Assembly: GCA_943787175.1 (NCBI GenBank)
Contig: CALSLK010000015.1
Coordinates: 76,788 to 140,787 of the forward strand
DNA length: 64,000 nt
Origin: an uncultured Alphaproteobacteria bacterium
Lineage (GTDB): Bacteria; Pseudomonadota; Alphaproteobacteria; SP197
Direction of reading: 5' to 3'
A model generated the notes under the pieces. That model had not been told where the DNA came from. It was given only the letters and a program-made list of their open reading frames with translations, and did no database searches. Shown here one piece after another: positions 10,532 through 55,506 of the stretch (position 1 is the first letter of the stretch; each line of letters begins with the position of its first letter). The translations under genes and the position numbers were made by a program.

Positions 10532-11560
10532 TCAGATAGGCGACGCGCCCGCCTTCTGCTTTTTGATCGAAAGGTCGGCAATCCGGGCCATCACTGATTG
10601 TGCTCCGGGTTGTCGAGATTGCGGGCCAGAGACCTCCAGGCAGGCCTGGCGCACGGCCACGCCCATCTCGACCTGATCGAGAATGACGCTGCGGTTGATG
10701 TCGTCGGCGACTTCGCTGTCGATCTCGATGCCGCGGTTCATGGGGCCGGGATGCATGATGAGCGCATCGGGCTTGGCGACGGCCAGCTTGTCGTAGATCG
10801 AGGCCGTAGAACTGGAAGTACTCGCGTTCGGACGGCACGAAGCTGCCCTGCATGCGTTCGGTCTGCAGGCGCAGCATCATCACGATATCGCACGTCTTTC
10901 AGGCCTTCGCGCATGTCGTGGATGCACCTCGACCCCATAACGGTCCGCTTTGGTCGGCAGCAGAGTCGGCGGCGCCACCAGCCGCACGCGCACGCCCATG
11001 GTGTTGAAGAGCAGGATGTTGGAGCGCGCCACGCGGCTGTGGGCGATATCACCGCAGATCGCGACGGTCAGGCCCGAAAGTGTTCCCAGGCGCCGACGGA
11101 TGGTCAGCGCATCCAGTAGGGCCTGTGTCGGATGTTCATGGCTGCCGTCGCCCGCGTTGATCACCGCAGCATTGACCGCGTTGGCGAGCAGCTTGACCGC
11201 GCCGCTGTCGGGGTGGCGCACGATCAGGACATCCGGGTGCATCGCGTTCAGCGTCGCTGCCGTATCGATCAGGGTTTCGCCCTTCTTGATGGCGCTGGTC
11301 GTGGGCGACATGTTGATGACGTCGGCGCCCAGTCGTTTGCCCGCAAGCTCGAACGACGTGCGCGTGCGCGTCGAGCTTTCGAAGAACATGTTGATCTGGG
11401 TGCGACCGTGCAGCGTGTTCTGCTTCTTCTCGGCGCGCCGATTAAGCGCGACGTACGAATCGGCGAGATCGAGCAGATGCACGATGTCCTGGGGCGACAA
11501 ATCCTCGATCCCGAGGAGATGGCGGTGGGTGAAACGGTATGGGGATGGATCAGCTGTCAT
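10532..11560 (-). pseudogene. pyrB: aspartate carbamoyltransferase catalytic subunit (pyrB), about three frame shifts
   Basis: N-terminal 226 aa intact ([20 protein letters not shown]). The C-terminal part continues in other frames ([29 protein letters not shown]; [19 protein letters not shown]...VRQACLEV). Confidence 0.75.
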
Positions 11561-14841: not shown

Positions 14842-16296
14842 ATGGGAATCACCCTTGAAGGCGCCACCGGCACCTGGGAATACGTGATCGGGCTGGAAGT
14901 CCATGCCCAGATCATCTCCAATTCAAAGCTGTTTTCCGGCGCTTCGACGGAATTTGGATCCGAGCCTAACAGTCAGGTTTCGCCCGTGGATGCGGGCATG
15001 CCTGGTATGTTGCCGGTGATCAATCTGGCGTGCATCGAACAGGCGGTGAAGACCGGTCTGGCGATCAACGGTGAGATCAACCTGACCTCGGTATTCGATC
15101 GCAAGAACTACTTCTATCCAGATCTGCCGCAGGGCTATCAGATCTCGCAGTTCAAGCAGCCTGTGGTGACCGGTGGCCATATCGATATTGAACTTGAAGA
15201 CGGCACGCAGAAACGTATCGGTGTCGAGCGCCTGCATGTCGAGCAGGATGCCGGCAAGAGCCTGCATGATCAGGACCCCAACGCTTCGTATGTCGATCTC
15301 AATCGCTCCGGTGTGGGCCTGATGGAGATCGTGTCGGATCCGGATATGCGCTCGCCCGAAGAGGCGGCGGCTTATGTGCGCAAGCTGCGCACGATCGTGC
15401 GTTATGCCGAAACCTGTGACGGCAACATGCAGGAAGGCTCCATGCGCGTGGACGCCAACGTATCGGTGCGCAAGGCCGGCGAAGAATTCGGAACGCGCTG
15501 CGAAATCAAGAACCTCAACTCCGTGCGTTACATGCAGCGTGCCATCGAGTTCGAGGCAATGCGCCAGATCGACGTTCTCGAGGCTGGCGGAAAGATCGAC
15601 CAGCAGACCCGCCTGTTCGATGTCGCCAAGAACGAGACACGCAGCATGAGGAGCAAGGAAGAGGCGCATGATTACCGCTACTTCCCCGATCCCGACCTGT
15701 TGCCCCTGCGCTTCGAGCAGGCCTGGGTGGATGAGATCGCTGCCGGTATGCCTGAACTTCCTGATGCCAAGATGGCCCGTTTCATGAAGGAGTTCGGGCT
15801 TTCTGCCTACGACGCCGACGTGTTGGTTGCTGAGCAGGAAAACGCGCATTTCTATGAGCATGTTGCCGAGGGTCGCGACAAGAAACTTGCTGCCAACTGG
15901 GTGATTTCCGAATTGTTCGGTCAGCTCAACAAGGCTGGCAAGACGGTTGAAGACAGCCCGGTGAGTGCCGAAGCTCTGGGTGAGCTGATCGACCTCATCA
16001 CCGATGACACCATTTCGGGACGTATCGCCAAGGACGTCTTTGCCGACATGTTCGAATCCGGCAAGGCTGCTGGTGTGATTGTTGAAGAGAAGGGCCTCAA
16101 ACAGGTTACTGACACCGGTGCCATTGAAGCCGTGATCGATGAGGTGATGGCGCGCGAGCCGGAGAAACTGGCTGAGTATCGCGGCGGCAAGGACAAGCTG
16201 TTCGGCTTCTTTATCGGCCAGGTCATGAAGGCGTCCGGCGGCAAGGCCAATCCGAAAGCGGTCAACGAACTTCTCAAGACCAAGCTGCAGGGTTGA
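14842..16296 (+). CDS. gatB: Asp-tRNA(Asn)/Glu-tRNA(Gln) amidotransferase subunit B
   Basis: 484 aa; GatB N-terminus [13 protein letters not shown]...[15 protein letters not shown]. Confidence 0.95.
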
Positions 16297-18578
16297 ACGC
16301 CTTGAAGGGCGCCCACACCGACACACTTCTGGCCCAGGCCCTGGGTTGGCTGGAAGAGACAACCGGCGGTGTTGCTCCCTCGATCCAGGTCGCCACGACT
16401 TACGTGCGTGACCCCGCCATGCCATCGTCCGAAGGGCTGTGGTACAGCCGCCCGGATAACCCCTGCTATTGGCAGGTCGAAGCACTGCTTGCCGAACTGG
16501 AACATGGCGAAGCGGCCATGGTGACAGGCTCTGGCTCGGCCTCCATGGCGATGGTGTTTGAGGCACTCTCGACCGGTGACCACGTGCTCATGCCGCATTA
16601 TGCCTATGGCGGCGTGCATTACCTCATCAACGACATGGCCAATGCCTGGGGCATCGAGATCGACGTCTATCAGACCGGTGATCTCGATGACATGGCACGG
16701 CTCGTTCGCCCTGGACAGACGAAGGTGGTCTGGGTTGAAACGCCGTCAAATCCTGAGATGGTCATTGTTGATCTGGAAGCCGCGGCCCGGATTGCCCACG
16801 GTGTTGATGCCAAGCTGGTGGTGGATGCCACCTTCGCACCGCCGCCGATCTGCAGACCTCTGGATCATGGCGCTGATGTAGTCTTGCACTCGGGCACCAA
16901 GTTCCTGAACGGCCACAGCGATGTGGTGTGCGGCACCATCGCCACGCGTGTGAAGGATGACTTCTGGCAGCGCCTGGACCGCATGCGCATGCGCTCGGGC
17001 GCCATGCTGGGTCCCTTCGAGACCTGGCTGCTGCTGCGCGGCCTGCGCACGCTGCATCTGCGCATGGAGCAGGCGCAGGCAAGTGCACAGAAGATCGCGG
17101 AATTCCTTGAGGGACATGTAGACGTTGGTCGGGTGTTTTATCCAGGGCTTGCCTCCCATCCCACGCACGACCTGGCCAAACGCCAGATGTCGGGCTTTGG
17201 TGCGATGGTGTCGTTTGATGTTACGGGATCCATGGAGGACGCGCTGAAAGTCTGGGGCGGTACCAGAATTTTCAAAAACGCAACGTCGTTGGGTGGTCCC
17301 GAAAGTCTTGTTGAACATCGCAAGAGTTCCGATGGCTACGAATCGCCCGTGCCACCCAACCAGCTTCGCCTTTCGGTTGGCCTTGAAGATGCTGATGACC
17401 TGATCGCCGATCTTGATGCCGCGCTGACCGGTAAGCCGACAAACCGGCCCCAGGCGCGCGCTACGAAGATTGCGCAGGGGCTTGGCTGGACGAGCAGGGA
17501 CCATAAGGCGGTCGTCCTGCCGGTTCACATGGCATCGACCTATGCCACCGATCCGGCGACTTACGGCAAACCCTATGCCTATGCGCGCGATCAGAATCCG
17601 ACCTATGAGCAGCCAGAGGCCCTGATCGCTGATCTGGAGGGGGGGTTTGAAGCGCGTCTGTTTGCTTCCGGCATGGCGGCGGTTTCGGCCGTGTTCCAGT
17701 GCCTTAAAGCCGGCGATCACGTGGTCATTCAGGACACGCTCTATTGGGCTATCCGCGGCTTGATGAAGCAGGTTGTGGAGGGCTGGGGCATCGAAGTGAC
17801 CTGGGCTCCGACAGGCGACCTCGAGGCGTTGCGCAGGGCAGTCCGAAAGGGTGAAACTCGCATTGTCTGGTTGGAAACGCCCGCCAATCCCACCATGGCC
17901 GTGACCGATATAGCCGCCGCCACGGCCATTGTGCGGGAAGCCGGTGCTTTGAGCGTGGTCGACAATACATTTGCCACTCCCTTGCTGACACGACCGTTGG
18001 AACTTAGTGCTGATTTCGTCATGCACTCGGCCACGAAATATCTGAATGGTCACAGCGATGTGGTGGCCGGTGTGCTGGTTGCCCGTGTGGAAACACCGTT
18101 CTGGGACCAGATTCGCCACATTCGGCACATGACGGGTGCGATCCTTGGGCCGTTTGAGGCATGGTTGCTGATGCGCGGTATGCGCACGCTCGAGATCAGG
18201 GTCGCGCGGGCCTGCCGGAACGCCATGGCAATTGCGCAACATCTGGATGGCCACGAAGCGGTCGATCTGGTGCTTTATCCCGGTCTCACGGCATCAAACG
18301 ATCATGATGTTTCCGCCCGACAGATGAGCGGCGGCTTCGGCGGCATGCTCTCCATCCGCATTCGGGGCGGGGAGGCCGCGGCCCAAAGGGTCTGGGCCCG
18401 CTTTAAACTCTTCAAGATTGCGACCTCGCTGGGCGGCGTAGAAAGCCTGGTCGAACATCGCGCTACGGTAGAGGGGCCAGAGAGTCCCGTGCCGGACGAT
18501 CTGCTGCGCCTGTCAGTCGGGGTCGAACACATCGATGATTTGATCGGCGATCTTGACCAGGCGTTGCAGGCTGCCTGA
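16293..18578 (+). CDS. tandem in-frame fusion of two Cys/Met-metabolism PLP-dependent (transsulfuration, CGS/CGL/OAH-sulfhydrylase family) domains
   Basis: 761 aa. Domain 1 (about 1-380) contains [13 protein letters not shown]. Domain 2 (about 400-761) contains [13 protein letters not shown]. The two halves align with each other over their full length, and the linker [21 protein letters not shown] has no stop. TTG start overlaps gatB stop (TTGA). Confidence 0.8.
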
Positions 18579-23858: not shown

Positions 23859-25577
23859 ATGACCCGTTGGGACAAATCCAAGCTGCCAAGCCGCCACACC
23901 ACCGTGGGGCCAACGAGCGCACCGCATCGGGCGTTCTATTACGCCATGGGCATGAGCGATGAGGAGGTTGAGCAGCCGTTTGTCGGTGTTGCGACAACCT
24001 GGAACGAGGCTGCGCCCTGCAACATTACCCTGATGCGCCAGGCCCAGGCCGCCAAGAAGGGTGTCAAGGCAGCAGGCGGAACGCCGCGTGAGTTCACGAC
24101 CATTACCGTAACCGATGGCATCGCCATGGGTCATGCCGGTATGAAGTCATCGCTGGTGAGCCGTGAGGTCATTGCAGACTCGGTCGAGCTCACGATGCGC
24201 GGGCATTGCTATGACGGTCTGGTCGGACTGGCTGGCTGCGACAAGTCGTTGCCGGGTATGATGATGGCCATGGTGCGTCTCAACGTGCCTTCCGTATTCA
24301 TGTATGGCGGCTCGATCATGCCGGGCCGCTACAAGAACCGCGACGTCACCATCGTCGACGTGTTCGAGGGAGTGGGTGCCAATTCCGCAGGAGCCATGTC
24401 CGATGATGAATTGAGCATTCTGGAACATGCAGCCTGTCCGTCGGGTGGGTCCTGTGGTGGCCAGTTCACGGCCAACACCATGGCGACGGTTTCCGAGGCG
24501 ATGGGCCTTGCGCTGCCCAATTCGGCCATGACACCCGCGCCGTTCGAGAGCCGCGATACCTTTGCCGAGGCGTCAGGCCAGGCGGTCATGCGGCTGATCA
24601 AGGACAACCTGCGCCCGCGCGACATCGTCACGCACAAGGCCCTGGAAAATGCCGCAACCGTGGTGGCCGCGAGCGGTGGCTCGACCAATGCAGGCCTTCA
24701 TCTGCCGGCGATTGCCAATGAGATGGGCATCGACTTCACGCTGGAAGATGTCTGTGAAATCTTCCGCAGGACGCCCTATATCGCTGACCTCAAGCCCGGC
24801 GGAAAGTATGTCGCCAAGGATCTCTACGGCGTTGGTGGCGTGCCCGTGCTGATCAAGGCACTGCTCGATGGCGGTTACCTCCACGGTGACTGCATAACCG
24901 TGACGGGCAAGACCCTGGCGGAGAATCACGCTGATGTTGTCTTCCCGGAAGATCAGGATGTCATCTACCGGACCGACAAGCCGCTTTCGACGACAGGTGG
25001 CGTGGTCGGACTGAAAGGCAATCTGGCGCCTGATGGCGGCATCGTGAAGATTGCCGGCATGGAGACCCTTCAGTTCCGTGGCCCCGCCCGTTGCTTTGAT
25101 ACCGAAGAAGAATGCCTGGAAGCCGTTCTGGCCCAGAAGTTCGAAGAGGGCGATGTGCTCATCATTCGCTACGAAGGGCCCATAGGCGGTCCGGGCATGC
25201 GTGAGATGCTGTCGACGACCAGCGCACTGTATGGCCAGGGCATGGGCGAGAAGGTGGCCTTGATCACCGATGGCCGCTTCTCGGGCGGCACGCGTGGCTT
25301 CTGCATTGGCCATGTCGGCCCGGAAGCCGCAGCCGGTGGCCCGATCGGGCTTCTCAAGGATGGCGATATGATCATGATCGATGCCGAAAAGGGCACACTT
25401 GATGTCGAGCTTTCCGACGAGGAGCTCGCTGAACGCAAGGCCGCATGGAAGCCGCGCAAGACCGACTACAATTCAGGAACGATCTGGAAATACGCGCAGA
25501 CCGTTGGTTCTGCGCGGTTTGGCGCTGTGACCCACCCTGGTGGTCATGGAGAAACGCACGTCTTTGCTGATCTCTAA
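23859..25577 (+). CDS. ilvD: dihydroxy-acid dehydratase (IlvD/EDD family)
   Basis: 572 aa; Fe-S cluster cysteines ([20 protein letters not shown]) and C-terminal GAVT motif of the IlvD family. Confidence 0.8.
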
Positions 25578-25598
25578 GGCGCAGGCAGCATAGGATTG

Positions 25599-25629
25599 CG
25601 GGGTAGGGGGCGTGTTACCCCCGACCCCG
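25599..25629 (+). terminator. imperfect GC-rich hairpin downstream of ilvD
   Basis: cggggtaggggg-cgtgtt-acccccgaccccg (one mismatch) followed by a T-rich stretch. Confidence 0.3.
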
Positions 25630-25726
25630 TGACGGTTGTCATAGTGTTGCCGCTTGTTTGCGTTAACCTGTTTTCCCGTCGAGATTGAGGTCGCCCTTAG
25701 GCTCGCTGTCCACAAGGAGAAGCAGA

Positions 25727-27763
25727 ATGAGAGATAGACTTGGCCTTTCCGCCGTTGCGGTTGCGGGCCTCCTCGCAGCATCGGTTCCCGCCCACGCACA
25801 GACCAGCGGTACTGCGTTTGATGTCGATGGCGATCCGGCTTTGCGCTGTGCCGTGTCACGCGCGGTCGAGCTCTCGAATGTGGAATTGTTGGGCCAGGTC
25901 GTCGAAAGCGTGGGGGTTTCTTCCTCGTTTGATGCCTTGTCGCGCGGCGATGCGGCCTCAGCGAGCCCCGAACATGTCGGCCTGCTGAAATCGCTCGGCC
26001 TGGTTGGTCAGGATGGCTCCAGCCTGACATCGGCGGGCCAGATGCTGGCCGATATCCGTTCAGCAGGTACGCGCGCTGTTTCGACCTCAGCACTGACCCT
26101 GAACGCGCCGCTTCAACATGACATCACCCTTCCTGGGACTCCTGCCAGGTTCTCCCTGTCGACTGGTGCTGGCGGTACCCTGCGCATCGTCGTGTCTCCG
26201 GCAGGCAACGGCAGTGCAGGATGTTCCGGTGACTTCGACCCTGTCGTGCGGGCAACACAGCCCGGTATCGCAGGCATCGAACATGTCGCGCGCGGCGCGG
26301 GCGAGGACCGTCAGGCAACGCTTTACCTCTACGACACCCCCGCTGGCGCCAGCATTGATATCGCCGTCAACGATATCGTTGGCGCGCCCGGCTCGTTCAG
26401 CATTGTTGCTGAGGCCGCCCTCGACGAAGTTCCCCTCCAGGATGGTACCGAACCCTATGTGGTTCTGGGTGACGGTTCGCCGGCCTATCTGCCGGTCGAG
26501 GTGGCGCAAGGCGAAAGTGCCGCTGTTGCGCTCTCGATTTCCTATGATGCGTGGGAACCCTGGTTTGCCGTTACCGGCCTGAGTGGTGCCCAACCCGGCG
26601 TGCGCCTTTACGAGGCCGATGGCTTCGGCGACTACCTGAGTGAACCTGTTTTCCGTTCGTCCTATCTCCCCAATGGAGAGGCGCGCGTCGATATGGCTGA
26701 GCCGCTTTATGGCGGTGAATACCTGATGGTGATCGAGGATCTGCAGCGCAACGCGGGAACGTTCCTGATTGAGTACAGCTCGGATGGATTTGCCTCGCAG
26801 CCGAGAATCTACGGCGACCTCTACCTGAATGAGGAAACGCTGGAGTATCTGGGCACGGATCTGGCCTTCACGGTCGAGGAACTGGGTTGGTACTACTTCT
26901 CCACGACGACCTACGACGATGTCGATCCGATCCTTAGCCTGCTCGATGCCGATGGCTGGTTTCTCTATGAATCGGACGATGATGCATTTTCGCTCAACCC
27001 GCTGATCGTCGCGGAGTTGGCACCTGGCGATTACACCCTGGCGCTGGATGGTTTCGATGGTGCTGTAGGCGAGGTTTATCTCTCGGCCTATCGCATTGAG
27101 CCCATGCATGTGTCGCTCAATACCCTGGGCATGAGCCAGCAGATCTCGGACGATTTCACCCAGGCGCCCGCCAATGTCTACATCATTGACGGAGCCGAAG
27201 GTAAGCTCGTCGACTTCGATGTCGACACATCAGCCAGCGGGTTCGACTCGACCCTCGCGTTTTATGACTCTTGGGACATGACGGTCTGGGTGAGCGATGA
27301 TGACGGCGGCATCGACTATGGCAGCCGGGTCGTAGACACCTTTGAAGGTGAAGGTCTGATCGCTGTTGTTGCCGGCTTTAACGGTGAGCGTGGAGGCCAG
27401 TATGATCTCACCGTGGTCGATCACGCTATCGTAGAAGGTCTGCCGGCCTCCGCCGCGGTTGTTGAGCCCGGAGGACCGCCGGTAACCGGTGATCTGCCTC
27501 TTGACGGCGATATTGCCTGGGTTCGTATGCCCGCTCAGGCCGATGGTTGGTTCGACATCGAGGTGACGTCCAACCTCTATTACTTCCGCGTCGATCTCTA
27601 TCTTTACGAAGAAGGGTTCGGTTACACCTGGTACGACGGCTACGACGGTTACGAGGGAGAAGTTTACCTCTCGACCGATGGCGACGGCGTCAGCGACACC
27701 TTGATCCTTGTGCGCAACACCAGCGGTGAGGGTGGCGGCAACTTCGAGGTAAGTGTCCGTTAG
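25727..27763 (+). CDS. secreted protein composed of tandem PPC (pre-peptidase C-terminal)-like repeats, no catalytic domain evident
   Basis: RBS aaggagaag then MRDRLGLSAVAVAGLLAASVPAHAQ signal peptide. At least four repeats of the PPC-like pattern Y.F....G..........D..L.L.D..G..L.ESDDDG....P.I.....G.Y.L...G (for example DPILSLLDADGWFLYESDDDAFSLNPLIVAELAPGDYTLALDG; FDSTLAFYDSWDMTVWVSDDDGGIDYGSRV); very Asp/Gly/Tyr-rich. Confidence 0.6.
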   Translation: MRDRLGLSAVAVAGLLAASVPAHAQTSGTAFDVDGDPALRCAVSRAVELSNVELLGQVVESVGVSSSFDALSRGDAASASPEHVGLLKSLGLVGQDGSSLTSAGQMLADIRSAGTRAVSTSALTLNAPLQHDITLPGTPARFSLSTGAGGTLRIVVSPAGNGSAGCSGDFDPVVRATQPGIAGIEHVARGAGEDRQATLYLYDTPAGASIDIAVNDIVGAPGSFSIVAEAALDEVPLQDGTEPYVVLGDGSPAYLPVEVAQGESAAVALSISYDAWEPWFAVTGLSGAQPGVRLYEADGFGDYLSEPVFRSSYLPNGEARVDMAEPLYGGEYLMVIEDLQRNAGTFLIEYSSDGFASQPRIYGDLYLNEETLEYLGTDLAFTVEELGWYYFSTTTYDDVDPILSLLDADGWFLYESDDDAFSLNPLIVAELAPGDYTLALDGFDGAVGEVYLSAYRIEPMHVSLNTLGMSQQISDDFTQAPANVYIIDGAEGKLVDFDVDTSASGFDSTLAFYDSWDMTVWVSDDDGGIDYGSRVVDTFEGEGLIAVVAGFNGERGGQYDLTVVDHAIVEGLPASAAVVEPGGPPVTGDLPLDGDIAWVRMPAQADGWFDIEVTSNLYYFRVDLYLYEEGFGYTWYDGYDGYEGEVYLSTDGDGVSDTLILVRNTSGEGGGNFEVSVR

Positions 27764-27847
27764 AGCGACGGCCTCACATTGCACTGGAATGCATCGCCCC
27801 TTGTCCTGATCGAACTTGATCGGGGCAGGGGGCGAACCTTGCGTGGC

Positions 27848-28255
27848 TCAGGTTTTGCTACCGAAACCGGATCGTTGCAGCAGATCATCGTCCGTGACGA
27901 ACCAGGTGACGTTGTCCGTCATCATGGAGTGCACGCTGGGTGGCAGCACTGTGGGATCGTCCAATGTCGCTGTGTAGATGTGAATTTCGCCGGGCCATGG
28001 GTCGCCCGCGTAGGTGAGGGATGTGCCGCATTGGCGACAGAATCCGCGCCGGACACCGGGCGATGATTCATAAATCGCCTGTTCACCTGCCAGCAAAGCA
28101 AAGTTCTCTAAGGCAACACCGACAAAGCCTGAAACCGGTGATCCCGTCGCCCGCTGACAGTCCCTGCAATGACAGATGCTGGAGAACCTGGCCGGCTCAC
28201 CGATCTGATAACGCACGGCCCCGCACAGGCAGCCACCTTCATGGTGACTGGTCAT
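27848..28255 (-). CDS. GFA family protein (glutathione-dependent formaldehyde-activating enzyme/CENP-V-like Zn carbon-sulfur lyase), paralog 1
   Basis: MTSHHEGGCLCGAVRY...ICHCRDCQRATGSP...GFCRQCGTSL: the full GFA cysteine set. Start taken at Met-46 of the track ORF. Confidence 0.8.
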   Translation of the reverse strand: MTSHHEGGCLCGAVRYQIGEPARFSSICHCRDCQRATGSPVSGFVGVALENFALLAGEQAIYESSPGVRRGFCRQCGTSLTYAGDPWPGEIHIYTATLDDPTVLPPSVHSMMTDNVTWFVTDDDLLQRSGFGSKT

Positions 28256-28682
28256 CGCCTTGCCCATGATGGTGTTTGGCGCCGGGGCAGAGATTTTCCG
28301 GATCAATCCATGACGGCAATTCATCGCCGTGGAACACTTCGTTGGGCGGAAAGGCCTCGATGTCATCAAGACTTGATGATGCCACAGCAACCAGTGTGTC
28401 GGTCTGAAAACGCTGATCTGGATAATCCGTGTTCCGGTAGTTGAGCGCTGTGCCGCAACGTCCGCAGAACTGACGGATGACCGTGTCAGAAGATTGGAAG
28501 GTTACAGGTTCGCCTTTGGTAATGGCGTAACCGGAATTGGGTACGGCGATCCAGGGTATAGCCGCTGCGCCGCTTGCGCCGCGACAGGTTGCACAGCAGC
28601 AATAACACTGGATCACGGGCTGGGCCGAAACGCGGTAGCGGACATCGCCGCAAAGGCATCCACCGTCATGGTGTTCTGTCAT
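28239..28682 (-). CDS. GFA family protein, paralog 2
   Basis: MTEHHDGGCLCGDVRY...CYCCCATCRGASG...FCGRCGTAL. Confidence 0.8.
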   Translation of the reverse strand: MTEHHDGGCLCGDVRYRVSAQPVIQCYCCCATCRGASGAAAIPWIAVPNSGYAITKGEPVTFQSSDTVIRQFCGRCGTALNYRNTDYPDQRFQTDTLVAVASSSLDDIEAFPPNEVFHGDELPSWIDPENLCPGAKHHHGQGDDQSP

Positions 28683-29062
28683 GTCGTCGCTCCTGATAGG
28701 CGAAGATGGAGCCAGGCAAGGCGCTCTTCTTCATGGAAGAACCCTGACGGGGCAAAGGGAGTGGAGTCGTCCAGAGTTGGTGACATGACATGCACTTCAT
28801 CGGGCGTGTCATCAGCCTCATAGGTGAGTGCTGTGCCGCAAGTCGCACAAAAACCCCGCCGCACACCTGGAGACGATGCGTAATGGGTCGCGGGATCCCT
28901 GGTCCAGGCGAACGCTCCTGGCTTGAGGTCAACAAAGGCTGCGACCGGCCCGCCGGTCGCCATGCGGCAACTGCGGCAATGACAGTAGTTGGCAACTGCG
29001 CCGACATCATCAATCGCATAGCGGACTGCGCCGCACATGCACCCACCCTCGTGTCGTGCCAT
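28679..29062 (-). CDS. GFA family protein, paralog 3
   Basis: MARHEGGCMCGAVRY...CHCRSCRMATGGP...FCATCGTAL; ATGA-type overlap with paralog 2. Confidence 0.8.
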   Translation of the reverse strand: MARHEGGCMCGAVRYAIDDVGAVANYCHCRSCRMATGGPVAAFVDLKPGAFAWTRDPATHYASSPGVRRGFCATCGTALTYEADDTPDEVHVMSPTLDDSTPFAPSGFFHEEERLAWLHLRLSGATT

Positions 29063-29074
29063 AGCAAACTCCCG

Positions 29075-29872
29075 TTAGTGCTCGCGCAGCAGGCGCCCGT
29101 AGCCTTCTATGCGATCGTCAATGCCGGCAAGGCGCATAACATCCCAGATCATGGCCTGGTTGCTGCACACGGCGGGTTTCCCCGCGCGTTGTTCGATCTC
29201 CTCGATCACATCCAGAGTTCGCAGCGCGCTGCAGGAGATGAAGATGGCGTCAGCGTCGGCACGGTCGAGTTCCAGCGCAAAGTCACGCAGATACTCAGGC
29301 TCAATTCGCGACATGTCCTCGTCCATCTCGACATTGAGGCCCTGGATATCGAGCACCTCGAACCCCTGTTCCACTAGATAATCGGCTTCAATCCGATTGA
29401 TCTCATCGAGATAGGGTGTGCCAACGACAATCTTTCTGGCGCCCAATGCCTTGAGGCCGCGCACGACCCCGGTCACCAACGTGGTTGTGCGGGCCTGGGG
29501 TTGCTGCATCGCCAGTGCTGCGCAGACGTTTTCTTCTCCGATGACAATGCTGCCCGATGTGCAGGAGAGCGTGACAGCATCCAGCGTTCCGTTCGGCACG
29601 ATAAGTGACGCGCTTGTCGAAAGGTGCGGCAGCATGGCGGCAAGTGTTTCGACAGTGACGCTGTTGGCCATCGTGACCCGGCTGAAGTGGACGCCGATGT
29701 CGTCAGGAACAACGCCGCGCACATCGTCTTCGCTGGTCTGGTCCATGGCTAGCAGGACAAACCCGAGTTTGGCACGGTCGTGGCGGCCGCCATCAAAGCG
29801 CACAGCTCGTGGTTTCGATGCAGGCCAGTCACCTTTAGATACCGATGCAGTCGGCATGTGGTCAGAACTCAC
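29075..29872 (-). CDS. Asp/Glu/hydantoin-racemase superfamily protein (maleate cis-trans isomerase / arylmalonate decarboxylase-like), paralog 1
   Basis: 265 aa; two conserved Cys motifs (LSCTSGSIVIG and AIFISCSALRT) at positions expected for the two-base Cys pair of maleate isomerase/racemases. Confidence 0.7.
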   Translation of the reverse strand: MSSDHMPTASVSKGDWPASKPRAVRFDGGRHDRAKLGFVLLAMDQTSEDDVRGVVPDDIGVHFSRVTMANSVTVETLAAMLPHLSTSASLIVPNGTLDAVTLSCTSGSIVIGEENVCAALAMQQPQARTTTLVTGVVRGLKALGARKIVVGTPYLDEINRIEADYLVEQGFEVLDIQGLNVEMDEDMSRIEPEYLRDFALELDRADADAIFISCSALRTLDVIEEIEQRAGKPAVCSNQAMIWDVMRLAGIDDRIEGYGRLLREH

Positions 29873-30647
29873 GGAACAGGCGGCCCAGTCCGCTCAGACG
29901 ATCATCAATTCCCGCCCGGCGCAGGCAATCCCATAACATCGCCTGGTTCGACGTAACGACCGGTTTGCCCGTGCGTTGCTCCAGCGCATCAATGATCTCG
30001 ACGGACCGCAGTGCACCACAGGAGATGAAGATGGCGTCGGCTTCCGGCAGGTCAACTTCGGCGCCGTAGTTCAGGAGATAGTCGGGCGTGACGCGGACCA
30101 TGTCGGCATCATCGGCGATGTTGAGCCCCTGAATGTCGAGGATATCGAAACCCTTGGCAGCCATATAGTCAGCTTCGATAACGTTGACCTCATCCAGATA
30201 GGGTGTGGCCACCACAATACGATTGGCGCCCAACGCTTCGAGAGCTCGCATGACACCGGTGATGAGGGAGGTTGGTTTGGCACCGGGCGCGCCGCGGTTC
30301 AGCTCGGCAAAAACGTTGTCTTCGCCGATCACGACGCTGCCGGAGGTGCAGGCATAACAGGCCACATCGAGAGTCTTGTCTGGCAGGATGCGCCCGGCGG
30401 CGTCACCAATACCCGATTTCATGGCGGTCAAGGTCTCGACGCTGACCCGGTTAGCCATCGGCGCGCGGGCAAAGTGGACACCCACGCCATCGGGCGCATG
30501 GCGCATCATGTCAGCCTCGACGGTCTGCTCCATGGCGAGCAGGACGAAACCGATGGACGCTCTGTGATTGCGCCCTTCGTCAAACTCTGGGGAGCGCTGT
30601 TTTGAGGCAGGCCAGAGCTTGCCTGACCCGGCGTCGTCAGGCGCCAC
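29862..30647 (-). CDS. Asp/Glu/hydantoin-racemase superfamily protein, paralog 2
   Basis: 261 aa; ACYACTSGSVVIG and AIFISCGALRS; aligns full-length with paralogs 1 and 3. Confidence 0.7.
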   Translation of the reverse strand: MAPDDAGSGKLWPASKQRSPEFDEGRNHRASIGFVLLAMEQTVEADMMRHAPDGVGVHFARAPMANRVSVETLTAMKSGIGDAAGRILPDKTLDVACYACTSGSVVIGEDNVFAELNRGAPGAKPTSLITGVMRALEALGANRIVVATPYLDEVNVIEADYMAAKGFDILDIQGLNIADDADMVRVTPDYLLNYGAEVDLPEADAIFISCGALRSVEIIDALEQRTGKPVVTSNQAMLWDCLRRAGIDDRLSGLGRLFREF

Positions 30648-30650
30648 GGC

Positions 30651-31430
30651 TCAGTGCTCCCGGTAAAGGCGACCAAGGCCTTCCATACGATCTTCGATCC
30701 CGGCCAGCCGCATCATGCGCCAGATCAGCGCATGATTGCTGCCGACAACGGGCTTGCCGGTGCGCTGTTCGATCTCTTCGACAACTTCGATCGTGCGAAG
30801 CGCACTGCAGGAAATGAAAATGCCGTCCGCGTCGGGGCGATCGATTTCCAGTGCAAGCTTGATGATGTCTTCAGGTTCAACCATCACCATGTCCTGACCG
30901 CACAGGAGGCAGAGGCCCTGTATGTCGAGCACATCGAAGCCGCGCTCGACCAGGAAATCTGCTTCAAAATGGTTGATCTCATCGATGTAGGGGGTGCCGA
31001 CGACAATCTTCTGCATGCCAAGGACTCGCATGGCTTCCACCACGCAGGTGACCAGAGACGTGGTCTTGGCCTGCGGCTGGGGTTTGGCAAGCGCCTTGGC
31101 AACATTGTCTTCACCAACAACCACACTGCCCGATGTGCAGACATAGGCGATGGCATCCATATCAGGAGGCAGGACACCGGCTGACCGGCTCAGGTCATCT
31201 CCGACAGCCGCCAGGGTCTCTACCGTCACCGAATCATCGAACGGGGTTCGCGTGTAGAAGACGCCAACGTCGTCAGGAACGACACGGCGGATATCGTCAT
31301 CGGCAGTTTCTTCGGTTTCAAGAAGAACGAACCCCAGGCGTCCCCGCGTATGGCGACCTTTGCCAAGATCAATGGAACGTGGCGTGGAATTGGCCCATCG
31401 CTGAGTGGTCTCGGGTACTGCTGCCATCAC
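30651..31430 (-). CDS. Asp/Glu/hydantoin-racemase superfamily protein, paralog 3
   Basis: 259 aa; IAYVCTSGSVVVG and GIFISCSALRT. Confidence 0.7.
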   Translation of the reverse strand: MMAAVPETTQRWANSTPRSIDLGKGRHTRGRLGFVLLETEETADDDIRRVVPDDVGVFYTRTPFDDSVTVETLAAVGDDLSRSAGVLPPDMDAIAYVCTSGSVVVGEDNVAKALAKPQPQAKTTSLVTCVVEAMRVLGMQKIVVGTPYIDEINHFEADFLVERGFDVLDIQGLCLLCGQDMVMVEPEDIIKLALEIDRPDADGIFISCSALRTIEVVEEIEQRTGKPVVGSNHALIWRMMRLAGIEDRMEGLGRLYREH

Positions 31431-36913: not shown

Positions 36914-37267
36914 TCAGATCGCGAACGACGTTCCGCAGCCGCAGGACGATGTGGCGTTCGGATTCTCCAGCGTGAAGTAGCTGCCTTCCAGATTCTGGAT
37001 GAACTGGAGGGTTGAGCCGTTCAGATACTGGAGCGAGATATCGTCGATCACGACCTTGGCACCGTCGACGATGATTTCGATATCGTCTTCTTCCGGGCCC
37101 TCATCGACCTTGAAATGATACTGGAAGCCTGAGCATCCGCCACCGGTTACGACAATGCGCAAGCGTCCTGCCCCGGGATCGCCATGTTCTGCGGCCATGA
37201 TCTGGCCGATGCGCACGGCGGCATCCTGTGTGACAATGATTCCGTCCTGGCTCGTCATATCGGTCAT
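36914..37267 (-). CDS. erpA: iron-sulfur cluster insertion protein ErpA (HesB/IscA family)
   Basis: 117 aa; GGGCSGFQY...CGCGTSF. Confidence 0.85.
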
Positions 37268-37372
37268 GATTTCTGGTACTCCATGCTTGCTAATGTAGGG
37301 ACGGCGATTGCCAAGTCAATTCACCAGAACGACAGATTGCCCCGGAGCACCGGAATCAATAGGTTCCGCGCC

Positions 37373-38520
37373 ATGACAGATGGATGCCTTGCACCTTATG
37401 CCTGCGACCCCGGCCAGAGCCGTGGCCGGCGCTTTGCCGAGCCGGAAAGCCAGAGCCGGTCTGTGTTTCAGCGAGATCGCGACCGGATCGTACACTGCCG
37501 CGCTTTCCGACGTCTGATGCACAAGACGCAGGTTTTCATCGCCACCGAGGGCGATCATTACCGCACAAGGCTGACGCACAGCCTTGAGGTTGCACAGGTT
37601 GCGCGGTCGGTCTCGCGCTCCCTCATGCTGAACGAAGACCTCGCTGAGGCGTTGGCGCTCGCCCACGATCTGGGCCACACACCGTTCGGCCATGCTGGTG
37701 AGGATGTGCTCGATGAAGCCATGGCACCGTGGGGCGGGTTCGATCACAACGTCCAGACCATGCGTATTCTGACCGAGCTTGAGACCCGCTATGCCGACTT
37801 CGACGGGCTTAATCTGACCTGGGAGACGCTTGAGGGCGTGGTCAAACACAACGGCCCCATCAGCCCTCCCGTGCCTACGGCCATTGCCGACTACAACCTT
37901 GTCCATGATCTCGAAGTCGATCACCTACGCGGGAGCAGAGGCCCAGGTTGCAGCCCTGGCTGACGATATTGCCTATCACAGCCACGATATTGATGATGGT
38001 TTGCGCGCCGGTCTCTTCACCCTGGAAGGGCTTCTTGAGGCACCATTGGCAGGCGATGCGGCCCGCGATGTCATGGCGCGTTACCCCGATATCGAGCTCG
38101 ACAGGCAGGTACAGGAAACCGTGCGGCGCATCATCAACCGGCTGGTTGGCGACCTGACCGAGGAATCACGCTTGAGGATTGCCGAAAGCGGGGTATGTTC
38201 GCCCGACGATGTGCGTTGGCATGGTTCGCCCGTGATTGCCTTCAGCCCACCCTATGGCTGAGGCCAATATGGCGCTGAAATCGTGGTTGTTTGCCAACAT
38301 GTACCATCATGAGCGCGTGACACAGGGCAGACGGGGCGCAACACAGATCGTGCGTGACCTGTTCGAACGGTTTCGTGCGGATGTCCGGCTGTTGCCACAG
38401 GAATGGCAGATTAGGCTGGGAGGGCGAAGCGAGACGGCCCGCATGCGGGTTTTGGCGGATTACATCGCGGGCATGACGGATCGTTTTGCTCAGGAAGAAC
38501 ATGAACGTGTGATGGCTTGA
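37373..38520 (+). pseudogene. dgt: dGTP triphosphohydrolase-like protein (dgt), two frame shifts (about 37930 and 38258)
   Basis: HD domain N-terminus ([17 protein letters not shown]...[11 protein letters not shown]...[14 protein letters not shown]) in one frame; continuation in two further frames ([26 protein letters not shown]...; ...RVLADYIAGMTDRFAQEEHERV). Confidence 0.75.
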
Positions 38521-38524
38521 AAAG

Positions 38525-40312
38525 ATGAATGTTTACAGTGAGTTCACAGATAAAATTCAAGCTGTGATCGAAGATATGAAGGCCGCTGGCGAGATCGCAG
38601 CAGAGGTCGATGTTTCACGTGTGCTGGCCGAGCCGCCGCGTGACGCAAGCCATGGCGACGTGGCAACCAATGCGGCTCTTGTACTCTCCAAGGCCGTCGG
38701 CATGAAGCCGCGCGACCTCGCGGAGTTGATCGTTCCCCGTATCGCTGCTGATGCCAATGTCACCAGTGCTGAAGTCGCAGGGCCAGGCTTCGTCAACATC
38801 CGGCTGTCGGATGACTTCTGGCGGGATCGTCTGCGCGAGCTTTTGAAAGCTGGCCCGGCGGCACTGATTCCAGACATCGGCAAAGGGCGCACTGCGAATG
38901 TCGAGTATGTCTCGGCCAATCCGACAGGCCCCTTCACGTCGGACACGCACGTGGGGCCGTCTATGGTGATGCCCTGGCAGCACTTCTCGAAGCGGTCGGA
39001 TATGATGTAACCCGTGAGTATTACGTCAACGATGCCGGCGCACAGGTCGATACACTGGCCTGGTCGGCTTTTCAGCGTTACCCCGGCAGGCCCTGGGCGA
39101 AACCGTCGGGCGAAGAGGAGTTCGAAGGTCTTTATTCCCGGTGATTACCTGATTGAAGTGGGTGAGACGCTTGCCCGTGAACATGGTTCATCCCTGAAGG
39201 ATGCGGTCGGCGACGCAGTGCGCGGAAATGGCGAATTACCGCAAGCGCTCGTTCCCGTGCGAGATTTCTCAATCAATGCGATGATGGACCTGATCCCGCT
39301 TCTGATCTGGCGCAGGTGGGGATCAAAACAGAACGTTTTCAGCTCTGAAAAACCAGATGGTGCAGTCTGGCGGCATTGAAGCCTGTCTGTCGTAAGTTGG
39401 AAGACAAGGGGTTGATCTACACCGGTGTTCTGGAGCCGCCCAAGGGCATGAAACCCGATGACTGGGAGCCCTTGCCCCAGACATTGTTCCGCTACGACCG
39501 ACTTTGGTGATGATCTCGACCGTCCGCTCAAGAAATCTGATCGGAAGCTGGACTTACTTCGCCCCCGACATTGCCTATCACAACAGCAAGGGTCGAGCGC
39601 GGTTTCGATCTGATGATCAACGTCTTTGGGTGCCGATCACGCCGGATACGTCAAACGCCTCAAAGCGTCCGTCGCTGCGCTCTCTGATGGCAAGGCCGAT
39701 TTCGATATCCTGCTGACCCAGCTCGTCAACCTGTTCGAAAACGGCGAACCGTTCCGTATGTCCAAGCGGGCAGGGCGTTTCATCACCCCTGCGCGATGTG
39801 GTCGATGCCGTGGGCAAGGACGTGGTTCGCTTCATTATGCTGACCCGCAAGGTCGAGGCACCACTCGATTTCGACCTGGTGAAGGTCAAGGAACAGTCCA
39901 AGGACAACCCGGTTTTCTATGTGCACTACGCCCATGCGCGGATTTGTTCGGTTCATGCGCAACGCCGGAGAAGCCGGGTTTGATGTTTCCGGGCTCGATT
40001 GTGCGGAACCTTTCCTATCTGAAGGATGAATCCGAAATTGCACTGATCCGGGCACTTGCGAGCTGGTCGCGTGTTGTCGAGGGAGCAGCGGAGTCGCATG
40101 AAGCTCACCGGATATCGAATTACCTTTATGAGGTCGCTTCGGAGTTCCACGGATTGTGGAACAAGGGACGGGATGATCCATCCCTGAGATTTCTTGTGGA
40201 GGGTCAGGCCGACCTGACACGTGCAAGGCTTGCGTTGATTGATGGTGTCAGGCAGGTGATAGCTGAAGGGTTACATCTGTTTGGCGTCGAGCCTATGGAG
40301 GAGATGCGCTGA
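38525..40312 (+). pseudogene. argS: arginyl-tRNA synthetase, at least five frame shifts
   Basis: N-terminal 140 aa (…[11 protein letters not shown]) and C-terminal 228 aa (…[13 protein letters not shown]..., DALYS-like anticodon-binding region ending EEMR) intact; middle part scattered across frames. Confidence 0.8.
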
Positions 40313-47634: not shown

Positions 47635-48913
47635 ATGCACGACATCGTCTGGATACGCGAAAATCCCGAAGCCTTCGATACGGCCTGCGCCAAGCGCGGG
47701 CTTGAGGCGCAGTCGTCTGAAATCCTCGCACTTGATCATTCAGTACGTCAGGCAAAAACCTCGATTCAGGAGCTCCAGCAGCGCCGCAATGAGCTTTCCA
47801 AGCAGATTGGCCAGGCAAAGGCCAAGGGCCAGGACGCTGATGCGGCCATGGCAGAGGTGGCTGGCCTGAAGGAGGAGATGACGGGTCTTGAGGAGCGCGA
47901 AACCTCAATTGCTCAGGTTCTGAACGATTTGTTGGCAGGTATTCCAAATTGCGTCGATGACGAAGCGCCCGAAGGCCTCGATGAAGCCGACAATGTCGAA
48001 ATCCGTCGTTGGGGCGAGCCGACGACCTTTGCCTTCCAGCCGAAAGATCACAGCGACCTGGGAACTGATCTTGGCCTGATGGACTTTGACCTGGGCGCCG
48101 AACTTTCCGGTGCACGTTTTGTCGTACTGACCGGAGCACTGGCCAGGCTCGAGAAGGCGCTCGCCCTGTTCATGCTCGATGTCCATACACAGGAGTTTGG
48201 TTACACTGAGGTCTCGACCCCGCTTCTGGTGCGCCCAGAGGTCGCTTACGGTACCGGCAATCTTCCGAAGTTCGCCGATGATCTGTTTCAGACCACCGAT
48301 GGGCGCTACCTGATTCCCACGTCCGAGATGACCCTGACCAACCTGGTGCGTGAGAAGATTGTCGAGGAAGAGCGTCTGCCCAAACGCATGACGGCCTTCA
48401 CGCCCTGCTTTCGTTCCGAGGCCGGATCGGCCGGGCGCGATACCAAGGGTATGATCCGCCAGCACCAGTTCTGGAAGGTCGAGCTGGTTTCGATCACCAC
48501 GCCTGAACAGTCCGAAGAAGAGCACCAGCGCATGACGTCGGCCGCAGAAACCATTCTGCAGCGTCTGAAGTTGCCTTACCGGGTCATGAACCTGGCGGCG
48601 GGCGATATCGGGTTCTCAGGTCGCCGGACCTATGATCTGGAAGTCTGGCTGCCCGGACAGGATGCCTATCGCGAGATTTCAAGTTGTTCGAATTGCGGTG
48701 ACTTCCAGGCCCGGCGTATGCGGGCGCGATGCCGCCCCAAGGGTGAGAAGAAAACCCGCTTCGTCCACACCCTGAATGGCTCTGGCATTGCCGTTGGCCG
48801 TGCTCTGGTCGCAATTCTGGAGAACTATCAGCAGGAAGATGGTTCGATCCTGATTCCTGATGTCCTGGCCCCCCTACATGCAGGGCCTCAACCGCATCGA
48901 AAAGGCAGCGTAA
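47635..48913 (+). CDS. serS: seryl-tRNA synthetase, frameshift about 10 codons from the C-terminus at a C6 homopolymer
   Basis: Class II core intact. At ggcccccctac (about 48870) the frame slips so the track ORF fuses into surE. The corrected frame gives the canonical end [13 protein letters not shown] with TAATG overlap to surE. Confidence 0.85.
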
Positions 48914-49680
48914 TGGCCAATCCCCGGATCCTCGTGACCAACGACGACGGCATCGAGGCATCGGGTCTTGCCTGCCTGGAAGCGATTGCTGCCGAGCTTT
49001 CTGATCAGGTCTGGGTCGTTGCGCCCGCAACCGAACAGAGCGGAAAGGGCCATTCGATTTCGCTGGGCAATCCCCTGCGTCTCCGCAGCTATGGTGAACG
49101 CAGGTTCAGTGTTGATGGTTCTCCTGCTGACTGCGTCATGATGGGCATTCGCCATGTCATGGCTGATGGCGGTGTTGATCTGGTCCTGTCTGGCGTCAAT
49201 CGCGGGGCCAATCTTGCCGATGACGTCACCTATTCAGGCACCGTGGCCGCGGCCATGGAAGGCACGTTGCTGGGCGTGCGTTCGATCGCGTTCAGTCAGG
49301 AGTATCGCAAGGGTGAAGCGATCCAGTGGGAAACCGCACGTGCACACGGTGCGGAGGTGGCGCGCAAGTTGCTTTCGACCGAATGGGAGCGCGGAGTCTT
49401 GATGAACGTCAACTTCCCGCCGGTCCTGCCCGATGATGTCGCCGGGGTGGAGGTCTGCCGTCAGGGTCAGCATAACTTTGCCGATCTGAAGCCGGAGAAA
49501 CGTACCGACCCCTTTGGTCGCGATTACTTCTGGACCAGCGGTTGGGGCATGGATGCTCGCGAAACGCAGGCCGGGACCGACCTTCATGCTGTGCTGGAGG
49601 GGCGTATCTCCGTGACGCCCATCGCGCTTGATATGACGCATGATCCCATGTTGGAGCGGCTTTCGACCGTGTTTGCGTGA
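48914..49680 (+). CDS. surE: 5'/3'-nucleotidase SurE
   Basis: [19 protein letters not shown]...; 255 aa. Confidence 0.85.
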
Positions 49681-54196: not shown

Positions 54197-54207
54197 GGGA
54201 CGGGACC

Positions 54208-55141: not shown

Positions 55142-55506
55142 GCGAGGATATTCCGCGCGGCCGCAAGGTTGTCTCGGGCTACGGCGATGGCGGTTTCCGC
55201 ATTGCCGGTGAACGTGTGGATGGCTCGGTCATCCTGTTCCCTGAACGGTTTCTTGCCTGGGATGTGTCGGCTCTATCAGAGCTGACGCCCGACCATTTCA
55301 GCGACATCATCGCTTGTGCGAACGAAGTCGATATCCTTCTGCTGGGCTGTGGCGATGTCCCTCCGATCATCGGCCACGAACTCCGCGATGCCTTGAAGGC
55401 CCATAACATCGTCCATCGATGCCATGGGGACTGGCGCAGCCTGCCGCACCTTCAACATTCTGCTTGGTGAAAGCCGGGCTGTTGCGGCTGCGCTGATCGC
55501 CGTCTG
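55138..55506 (+). CDS. Mth938-like (DUF498, NDUFAF3-homologous) protein, frameshift near C-terminus
   Basis: MSEDIPRGRKVVSGYGDGGFRIAGERVDGSVILFPERFLAWDV...DILLLGCG; canonical end IDAMGTGAACRTFNILLGESRAVAAALIAV* is in the adjacent frame. Confidence 0.65.

Follow-up and report, generated by a model that had tools for sequence, protein, structure and literature searches.

The gene at 25727-27763 of the 64,000-nucleotide window (the whole stretch of DNA analysed) is intact and conserved. Judging from the sequence, its 678-aa product is a Sec-exported, non-enzymatic and highly acidic protein, and two of its five predicted beta-sandwich modules, B3 and B4, appear homologous at the profile level to the PPC (pre-peptidase C-terminal, PF04151) or DVUA0089-type domain. 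By analogy, it most likely serves outside the cytoplasm as a scaffold for binding or adhesion, stabilised by calcium. The original prediction, which read the product as a secreted protein made of PPC-like repeats, holds in that the protein is exported, non-catalytic and composed mainly of PPC-type modules, but for B1, B2 and B5 no related sequences turned up beyond the family itself. The features of the locus are the following.

25598..25630, + strand, GC-rich hairpin 3' of the ilvD stop codon (25575-25577), from RNA folding
25629..25666, + strand, upstream DNA motif of about 38 bp, GTGACGG-N2-GTCATAGT-N3-GCCG-N7-GCGTTAA
25714..25719, + strand, ribosome-binding site AAGGAG, 7 nt 5' of the ATG, kept in orthologous loci
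25727..27763, + strand, coding sequence, 678 aa plus stop codon, from the list of open reading frames
25727..25801, + strand, Sec signal peptide, residues 1-25, predicted cleavage between AHA and QT, from the sequence
25835..26065, + strand, N-terminal helical domain, residues 37-113, AlphaFold (AF2) model, pLDDT about 73-83
26084..26416, + strand, beta module B1, residues 120-230, nine strands, AF2 model
26456..26782, + strand, beta module B2, residues 244-352, AF2 model
26858..27100, + strand, beta module B3, residues 378-458, PPC-like, DVUA0089 subtype
27104..27421, + strand, beta module B4, residues 460-565, PPC-like
27482..27757, + strand, beta module B5, residues 586-677, AF2 pLDDT 84-94, the best-modelled part
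27794..27835, no strand assigned, long perfect hairpin between the convergent stops of the gene (27763) and of the first GFA gene (27848), from folding

The open reading frame listed by the program spans 25685-27763 and starts with TTG. The ATG at 25727, 7 nt 3' of the AAGGAG hexamer, is the start codon common to all orthologues and yields 678 aa; the gene has a ribosome-binding site of its own and an uninterrupted frame, as had been proposed. An identical protein (P0001) is encoded in an independent assembly. Full-length orthologues are 42-87% identical to the 678-aa protein, and dN/dS varies from 0.085 to 0.34 among orthologue comparisons (0.085 overall) and from 0.05 to 0.12 among the five regions tested (N-terminal region and B1 to B4; B5 is missing from the truncated locus L006). 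The order EamA-EamA-ilvD-gene-GFA-Amdase-xth is conserved in a small number of MAGs from uncultured, Rhodospirillaceae-like marine bacteria. These comparisons point to a single-copy gene, vertically inherited, under purifying selection and seemingly restricted to one small, uncultured marine clade of Rhodospirillaceae-like Alphaproteobacteria. A functional link to ilvD was rejected, as in locus L009 an unrelated 671-aa open reading frame separates ilvD from the orthologue, and the upstream motif stays with the latter.

The gene was originally said to follow ilvD after a terminator-like hairpin. Both ilvD and the hairpin at 25598-25630 are found, but the hairpin lacks a T-run, and for this reason was missed by the terminator scan, which gave no call; it may be the ilvD terminator. 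Its pairing seems, by eye, to be kept by changes in both arms (GGGGG/CCCCC in the window, CTGGC/GCCAG in locus L011). The hairpin at 27794-27835, built on a 19-bp core stem, is a candidate bidirectional terminator. The 106-nt segment around it folds at -49.6 kcal/mol (z = -4.8; none of 200 shuffled sequences is as stable), and the Rfam search of this hairpin returned just one sub-threshold, spurious miRNA match.

The signal peptide predicted at the outset is borne out by an n-region (MRDR), an h-region (LGLSAVAVAGLLAASV) and a cleavage site (PAHA followed by Q), and it provides the sole hydrophobic 19-residue window of the protein. Neither a lipobox nor a twin-arginine motif was found in it by sequence inspection, and orthologues retain the pattern, including the A-x-A-type site. 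The mature protein had been described as extremely rich in Asp, Gly and Tyr. This is overstated: Tyr is raised (5.2%, about twice the level of neighbouring genes), but Asp (9.6%) and Gly (11.9%) fall inside the range of the neighbours. The truly unusual compositional feature is the scarcity of Lys, of which the whole protein has just two residues (0.3%; the other genes of the window that were examined have 0.8-8.5%), together with a pI of 4.05.

The architecture was derived from the second AF2 model, obtained with an input of eight sequences (pLDDT 73.1); an earlier model from five sequences (pLDDT 55.8) was set aside as too poor. In agreement with the expectation that structure prediction would reveal beta-sandwiches, the model shows one helical domain and, C-terminal to it, five beta-sandwich modules, each about 80-110 residues long. 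The helical domain, of about 80 residues, had been overlooked, and the protein is not built almost entirely of repeats, as had been claimed. Its predicted helices span residues 37-62, 65-72, 81-89 and 102-113, and are preceded by a DVDGD..LRCAV segment, carrying Cys41, which is invariant in alignments A1 and A2. The exhaustive profile search found sequence relatives outside the family neither for this domain nor for B1, in which Cys166 is invariant. B5 is Tyr-rich, featuring nine Tyr in residues 601-650.

At least four PPC repeats had been counted. Five beta-sandwich modules are modelled, and B3 and B4 are PPC-like, but the modules are not repeats of each other in sequence. They share 14-29% pairwise identity, and hhalign comparisons between segments of the family alignment gave nothing significant, the best probability being 41% over 13 columns, or 17.6% from module to module with improved boundaries. 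Tandem repeats were dropped at the sequence level because no significant module-to-module hhalign match emerged, and the repeat detection that had been suggested does not sustain the claim. No catalytic domain was found by Pfam, NCBIfam, PDB sequence or fold searches, in line with the original prediction; the PDB sequence searches returned only noise, whether queried with the single protein or with the family profile. The RTX, cadherin-like and missed-enzyme alternatives that had been named as able to overturn the PPC reading all failed to appear in the motif and Pfam searches. An RTX protein was rejected (no GGxGxD motif, no Pfam match, an N-terminal Sec signal peptide present), as were cadherin-like, Big or other Ig-like adhesin repeats (no Pfam match at E<=10, modules dissimilar).

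The relation to PPC is indirect. The search with the PF04151 model, put forward earlier as a check, gave no match to the whole protein even at E<=10 (gathering threshold 25.9 bits), no Pfam family at all matches the protein at that cut-off, and B3 alone has no Pfam match at E<=0.01. As a direct match is missing, the link was made transitively. The exhaustive profile search retrieved about 250 multi-domain proteins, most of them with PF04151, which match positions 375-460 and 495-565 only. With a profile from which the query had been left out, B3 scores 78 bits and B4 21 bits over residues 498-565 (independent E 1e-8); when aligned by hhalign to the external PPC-like profile, the two modules reach probabilities of 99.8% and 96.4%, respectively. 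The two segments quoted in the original prediction correspond exactly to these demonstrable PPC-like modules (residues 377-458 and 498-565). PPC homology is not established by sequence for B1 (67% over 92 columns), B2 (20%, the last strands, 327-351, matching marginally) or B5, in which a sequence relation to PPC is undetectable against the same profile (3.6%). An alignment of 53 members (A3), comprising the B3 segment of the query and 52 segments of relatives, includes 22 members matching PF04151 and 45 matching NF038127. A B3-based profile weakly matches the collagen-binding domains of collagenases in the PDB (E 0.004-0.02), and the predicted module fold is superposable on, and best matched by, solved PPC/collagen-binding domains.

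NF038127 (FDP_fam), the model of the DVUA0089 family, is the sole curated model touching the protein (residues 381-445, E 6e-5); the full protein scores 23.4 bits and the isolated B3 module 26.4 bits, close to, but below, the curated cut-off of 29. The B3 motif reads VDPILSLLDADG...SDDD...PGDYTL...G, the B4 motif FDSTLAFYD...SDDDG...GQYDLTV. As in the DVUA0089 family, an 'nDD' follows the D-x-x-G turn (SDDD in both B3 and B4), but the DVUA0089 type accounts for just one or two of the five modules. Asp residues 400, 407, 417 and 418 are invariant or nearly so across the PPC-like alignment. DVUA0089 itself is the target of a sigma54 regulator whose regulon has been annotated with a role in making exopolysaccharide and biofilm (PMC4641369). 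The PF04151 domain type includes the collagen-binding domains of clostridial ColG/ColH (1NQD, 3JQW, 5IKU) and the PPC domain of a Bacillus anthracis collagenase (5SV5). Unlike collagenase PPC domains, the modules of the 678-aa protein follow no peptidase domain, and are five in number, accompanied by a helical domain; collagen binding, a trait of the collagenase domains, is not expected in this setting.

A stand-alone multi-PPC architecture had been regarded as uncommon in an Alphaproteobacterium. For the architecture as such, with relatives counted regardless of taxonomy, rarity is not supported, as PPC is present in 68 of 84 full-length relatives and a peptidase domain in 1 of the 84, and multi-PPC proteins of this kind appear common, not exceptional. 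The (meta)genomic multi-PPC proteins retrieved by the exhaustive search (P0009-P0154) likewise have several PPC-like modules, usually without a catalytic domain, and 99 of 144 have a hydrophobic N-terminus by a crude check. They share with the 678-aa protein just the B3/B4-type module, at 27-40% identity; the N-terminal helical domain, B1, B2 and B5 are absent from all of them. The name 'pre-peptidase C-terminal' is misleading for this class, because the modules mostly occur without a protease.

The upstream motif occurs once in the window, and exactly once in each of 12 orthologous loci, always 5' of the orthologue, L009 included. It holds a palindrome, TGAC-N4-GTCA (25630-25641), and a pair of elements resembling an ECF-type promoter, TGTCATA (25637-25643)-N17-CGTT (25661-25664). 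Among metagenome contigs four matches were found, three located 5' of orthologues and one inside an unrelated open reading frame, the latter probably a chance match; the contig search revealed no co-regulated genes sharing the motif. A structured 5'-UTR RNA or riboswitch was rejected (no Rfam match, no covariation), as were, by eye, a sigma54 promoter in the style of DVUA0089 and a Pho box, for misfitting spacing and half-sites.

ECF41 promoters carry the signature TGTCACA-N16+/-1-CGTC, a cognate ECF41 sigma gene usually lies next to the target, and the ECF41 targets known so far are neighbouring COE genes, encoding carboxymuconolactone decarboxylase, oxidoreductase or epimerase (Wecke et al. 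2012, PMC3426412). The paired elements of the window are like ECF41 promoters in sequence and distance, the -10 element ending 62 nt 5' of the ATG. They differ from the consensus in the -35 element, with one mismatch in the window and two in distant orthologues (GGTCATA), and in the -10 element, which is CGAT in one orthologue; moreover, the invariant GTGACGG and GCCG are extra blocks outside the ECF41 motif. No gene for ECF41 or another sigma factor was found among the window open reading frames scanned. On base pattern and spacing, the motif resembles an ECF-sigma (ECF41-like) promoter.

These data can be accommodated, with slightly better than even confidence, by a string of exported, non-catalytic binding modules, stiffened by Ca2+ and expressed from an ECF-type promoter. 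Once the signal peptide is cleaved, the protein would act extracellularly or in the periplasm; its modules would hold on to a partner protein or to a polymer, be it protein, polysaccharide or matrix, and would catalyse nothing. Two papers (PMC6168687, PMC3327674) describe PPC and collagen-binding domains of proteases as binding substrate. Ca2+ would be coordinated by the Asp clusters (D400, D407, D417, D418 and the corresponding residues of B4) and make the modules stiffer, on the model of the collagenase collagen-binding domains (ColG s3, ColH s3), in which the N-terminal linker and Asp residues chelate the ion. The transcript probably begins from an ECF-type (alternative-sigma) promoter lying inside the upstream motif, in which case expression would depend on a signal from the envelope or the environment. 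The window offers no support for an extracellular role, as type II secretion, adhesion, protease and polysaccharide genes were not found in it. A periplasmic resident, which the Sec signal brings no further than the periplasm and in which the beta-sandwich modules serve as scaffold, chaperone or inhibitor for another protein or complex, is a doubtful alternative. Comparable single-domain examples exist in the HDH assembly factor Kustc1130 and in the PliG lysozyme inhibitors, but fold matches of this type are not as strong as the matches to PPC domains of collagenases, a five-module, 69-kDa protein of pI 4 exceeds in size the known periplasmic inhibitors and assembly factors, and no partner gene is linked.

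The Tyr-rich B5 invites the idea that the modules, B5 especially, resemble carbohydrate-binding modules (CBM) and anchor the cell to exopolysaccharide that it makes itself or to polysaccharides of marine origin. This is quite unlikely, as CBM matches score below PPC matches, no CBM Pfam family matches the protein, and glycoside hydrolase or polysaccharide-utilisation genes are not adjacent. The N-terminal half raises other possibilities. Among 1.84 billion representative proteins, none beyond the family is related to residues 26-352, yet this part is strongly constrained (dN/dS 0.055-0.12) and rich in invariant residues, and PPC domains classically come after a catalytic domain. That the helical domain and B1/B2 form a new catalytic domain, with the PPC-like modules as accessory tail, is hardly credible all the same. 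A broader version, in which the product is a clade-specific envelope or surface protein, its N-terminal half being a new ligand-binding or catalytic unit with a dedicated upstream element, is very unlikely; if true, the N-terminal unit and the upstream element would represent an undescribed signal-responsive surface module of uncultured marine Rhodospirillaceae-like bacteria.

With the string of binding modules as the preferred reading, the 678-aa protein represents an ordinary uncharacterised family, found in only one group of uncultured marine bacteria, and ordinary because multi-PPC-type architectures are common. Its direct importance is modest, and no long-standing open question is touched. 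The family joins a large class, unexplored as to function, of exported proteins made of PPC-type modules only. Being single-copy and syntenic, with a gene-specific upstream motif of unusually high conservation, it would lend itself to use as a marker or test case, should the host clade ever be cultured.

The target gene (25727-27763, + strand) lies in the open frame 25685-27763 of the six-frame ORF list. ATG 25727 is the start codon in every orthologue, lies 7 nt downstream of AAGGAG, and opens a product of 678 aa; the gene and its own ribosome binding site thus stand as proposed. The N-terminus, MRDR-LGLSAVAVAGLLAASV-PAHA/QT, is a standard Sec signal peptide featuring neither a lipobox Cys nor a twin-arginine motif, and is the sole hydrophobic 19-residue window in the protein, in agreement with the classical export signal originally predicted. 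The preceding ilvD gene (PF00920/PF24877) ends at 25577. The terminator-like structure placed after ilvD exists as a hairpin, but has no T-run, and for this reason was not called by a simple terminator scan:

25598-25630, GC-rich hairpin after ilvD, found by RNA folding

AlphaFold2 produced a poor model with five sequences (pLDDT 55.8). Upon addition of relatives 42-44% identical the pLDDT was 73.1, and the beta-sandwich architecture expected for the protein is seen in this second model as five all-beta modules downstream of a helical domain (Nt):

residues 37-113, helical region (Nt)
residues 120-230, module B1, all-beta
residues 244-352, module B2, all-beta
residues 378-457, module B3, all-beta
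residues 460-565, module B4, all-beta
residues 586-677, module B5, all-beta
residues 233-238 and 354-377, low-confidence linkers

In second rank the modules match small jelly-roll/GOLD-like sandwiches and subtilisin C-terminal sandwich domains. Sandwich arrays matched by Foldseek include neuropilin, Cry1Ac protoxin, 5IKU and PCPE-1. No catalytic fold emerged from Foldseek or the fold search; as Pfam, NCBIfam and PDB searches also gave none, the claim that the protein lacks a recognisable catalytic domain holds.

The relation to pre-peptidase C-terminal (PPC) domains is distant. Nothing in Pfam, PF04151 included, matches the protein even at E ≤10, and PDB sequence searches returned nothing relevant. 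The single NCBIfam match is to NF038127 (DVUA0089 family; residues 381-445), at 23.4 bits, short of the curated cut-off of 29 bits. The exhaustive profile search over 1.84 billion representatives yielded only four full-length relatives plus two fragments, and about 250 further multi-domain proteins which align with the query profile almost solely at residues 375-460 and 495-565; PF04151 is found in 9 of the 10 best scanned. When the query B3 is aligned with 52 relative segments, PF04151 matches 22 of the resulting 53 sequences and NF038127 matches 45. The query-free profile built on these segments reached 78 bits on residues 377-458 and 21 bits on residues 498-565. Compared to this external PPC-like profile, which in the PDB weakly matches Kustc1130 and the ColG and ColH collagen-binding domains (E 0.004-0.03), probabilities were 99.8% for B3, 96.4% for B4, 67% for B1, 20% for B2 and 3.6% for B5. 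The claim of at least four tandem PPC-like repeats therefore survives for B3 and B4 only as PPC-like modules: identity between modules is 14-29%, hhalign probabilities are at most 41% for every pair, and no repeats are detectable. Sequence relatives of Nt, B1, B2 and B5 are confined to the family. The protein is distantly related to, and works like, PPC/DVUA0089-type domains; as both the PF04151 and the NF038127 thresholds were missed, it is labelled PPC-like rather than a member.

The stand-alone multi-PPC architecture had been regarded as uncommon in an Alphaproteobacterium. As an architecture in general it is not unusual, judging by a survey of 84 relatives, each up to 900 residues long and taken without regard to taxonomy. 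PF04151 was found in 68 and the related PF23623 in 39 of them, a peptidase domain (Trypsin_2) in one. Of 144 relatives, 99 begin with Met and satisfy a rough test of N-terminal hydrophobicity. Proteins of this architecture class are thus common across (meta)genomes at large; rarity applies solely to this one full-length family.

The mature protein has a pI of 4.05 and contains 9.6% Asp, 11.9% Gly and 5.2% Tyr. Compared to 16 other genes of the window it stands out only in Tyr, about twice as frequent, and in Lys, near absent (two residues, 0.3% vs. 0.8-8.5%); the richness in Tyr is real, that in Asp and Gly was overstated. Cys41 and Cys166, the only cysteines, one in Nt and the other in B1, are invariant in both alignments of orthologues, which reach down to 59% identity. 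The pair suggests a predicted inter-domain disulfide.

An identical protein is encoded in an independent assembly, and full-length orthologues are 87, 85, 64, 59, 44 and 42-43% identical. Compared with the closest orthologue, dN/dS (Nei-Gojobori) is 0.085, and stays between 0.05 and 0.12 when Nt and B1-B4 are taken singly (five regions; B5 excluded, locus L006 being truncated). Relatives are encoded in just 4 of 185,579 GTDB species genomes, all of them MAGs of marine or Caspian origin that carry the label Rhodospirillaceae, Alphaproteobacteria or Proteobacteria. All contigs recovered are syntenic (EamA-EamA-ilvD-target gene, followed on the opposite strand by copies of GFA and of Amdase, then xth). 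Given the few related MAGs and the shared synteny, the gene belongs to the core of a restricted clade and is inherited vertically; on the same grounds, the reading as an island or cargo gene was rejected. In one Caspian MAG (L009, 5762-7777, + strand) an unrelated 671-aa ORF sits between ilvD and the orthologue.

Neighbouring genes are metabolic or housekeeping (ADI/DDAH-like, two EamA, ilvD, three GFA, three Amdase-like, xth); genes for secretion, proteases or polysaccharides neither adjoin the target gene nor occur among the other window ORFs scanned. Target and GFA genes are convergent, and a hairpin whose 19-bp core stem pairs perfectly and which has no T-run (27794-27835) separates the stop codons of the target and first GFA genes. 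The 106-nt segment around it folds at -49.6 kcal/mol (z = -4.8). The hairpin could serve as a terminator in both directions, or could be REP-like.

Other observations concern the rest of the window. Three tandem GFA (PF04828) paralogues, then three tandem Amdase-like (PF17645) genes, occupy 27848-31430 (- strand); their number varies among related contigs (1-3 and 1-2 copies, respectively). The 761-aa ORF at 16293-18578 (+) carries the Cys/Met-metabolism PLP-enzyme domain twice, complete each time (PF01053, 755 bits over two stretches), and looks like a real tandem-domain fusion, since a 758-aa call in a related MAG (L011, 589-2865) has the same fusion. The 681-aa ORF at 47635-49680 (+; Seryl_tRNA_N and tRNA-synt_2b, residues 1-398; SurE, 432-615) is either a serS-surE fusion or has lost a stop codon by sequence error; likewise, the 437-aa ORF at 54157-55470 (+; SecF, with SecD_SecF_C and Sec_GG, and DUF498, residues 339-420) is either a fusion or lacks a stop codon. 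At 37184-40312 (+) an HD-domain dGTPase-like gene and argS are broken into at least seven short ORFs, which suggests that the sequence here has frameshift errors or is of low quality; related contigs have both genes intact (382 and 590 aa in locus L001). The same cause may underlie the truncated carbamoyltransferase ORF at 10880-11560 (OTCace_N, partial OTCace).

A conserved block lies upstream of the target gene:

25629-25666, + strand, about 38 bp, GTGACGG-N2-GTCATAGT-N3-GCCG-N7-GCGTTAA

The block varies little or not at all among orthologous loci, even those whose proteins are only 42% identical, yet synonymous sites are saturated between orthologues (dS >1.5). The pattern is unique within the window and occurs exactly once per locus (12/12), always 5' of the orthologue, and is kept in the Caspian MAG though the 671-aa ORF, not ilvD, is the upstream neighbour. 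An exact scan across metagenomes located it nowhere but upstream of orthologues, apart from one match inside an ORF, probably due to chance. As neither an Rfam match nor RNA covariation was found, the block is more likely a DNA-level signal. It includes the palindrome TGAC-N4-GTCA, and TGTCATA-N17-CGTT, resembling the ECF41 promoter signature TGTCACA-N16±1-CGTC (PMC3426412). We infer that the block serves the gene as a promoter and operator of its own, which may require an alternative sigma factor.

The protein is an exported string of PPC-type sandwiches, devoid of recognisable enzyme domains and under purifying selection. PPC/collagen-binding domains of secreted proteases are described as substrate- or surface-binding and often Ca2+-stabilised (PMC6168687, PMC3327674), and ColG structures are among the fold-search matches. 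D400, D407, D417 and D418, conserved across the PPC-like alignment, are obvious candidate Ca2+ ligands. DVUA0089, on which the closest curated family was founded, is among the targets of a regulator whose annotation is exopolysaccharide/biofilm synthesis (PMC4641369). On these analogies we lean towards a non-catalytic scaffold for binding or adhesion: the modules would bind a substrate or surface, Ca2+ would stabilise them through the conserved Asp residues, and the site of action would be the periplasm, the cell surface or the space beyond it. Confidence in this statement as a whole is slightly better than even; it is high for the anatomy, and well short of even for the specific role.

A purely periplasmic scaffold or inhibitor is unlikely though not negligible. 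A carbohydrate-binding protein is rather improbable, and an enzyme hidden in the orphan N-terminal half very much so. The binding or adhesion scaffold is favoured. There is a slim chance that this orphan half, together with the regulatory motif specific to the gene, makes up a new signal-responsive surface module; an exported protein built only of PPC-type sandwiches is of an already common kind.
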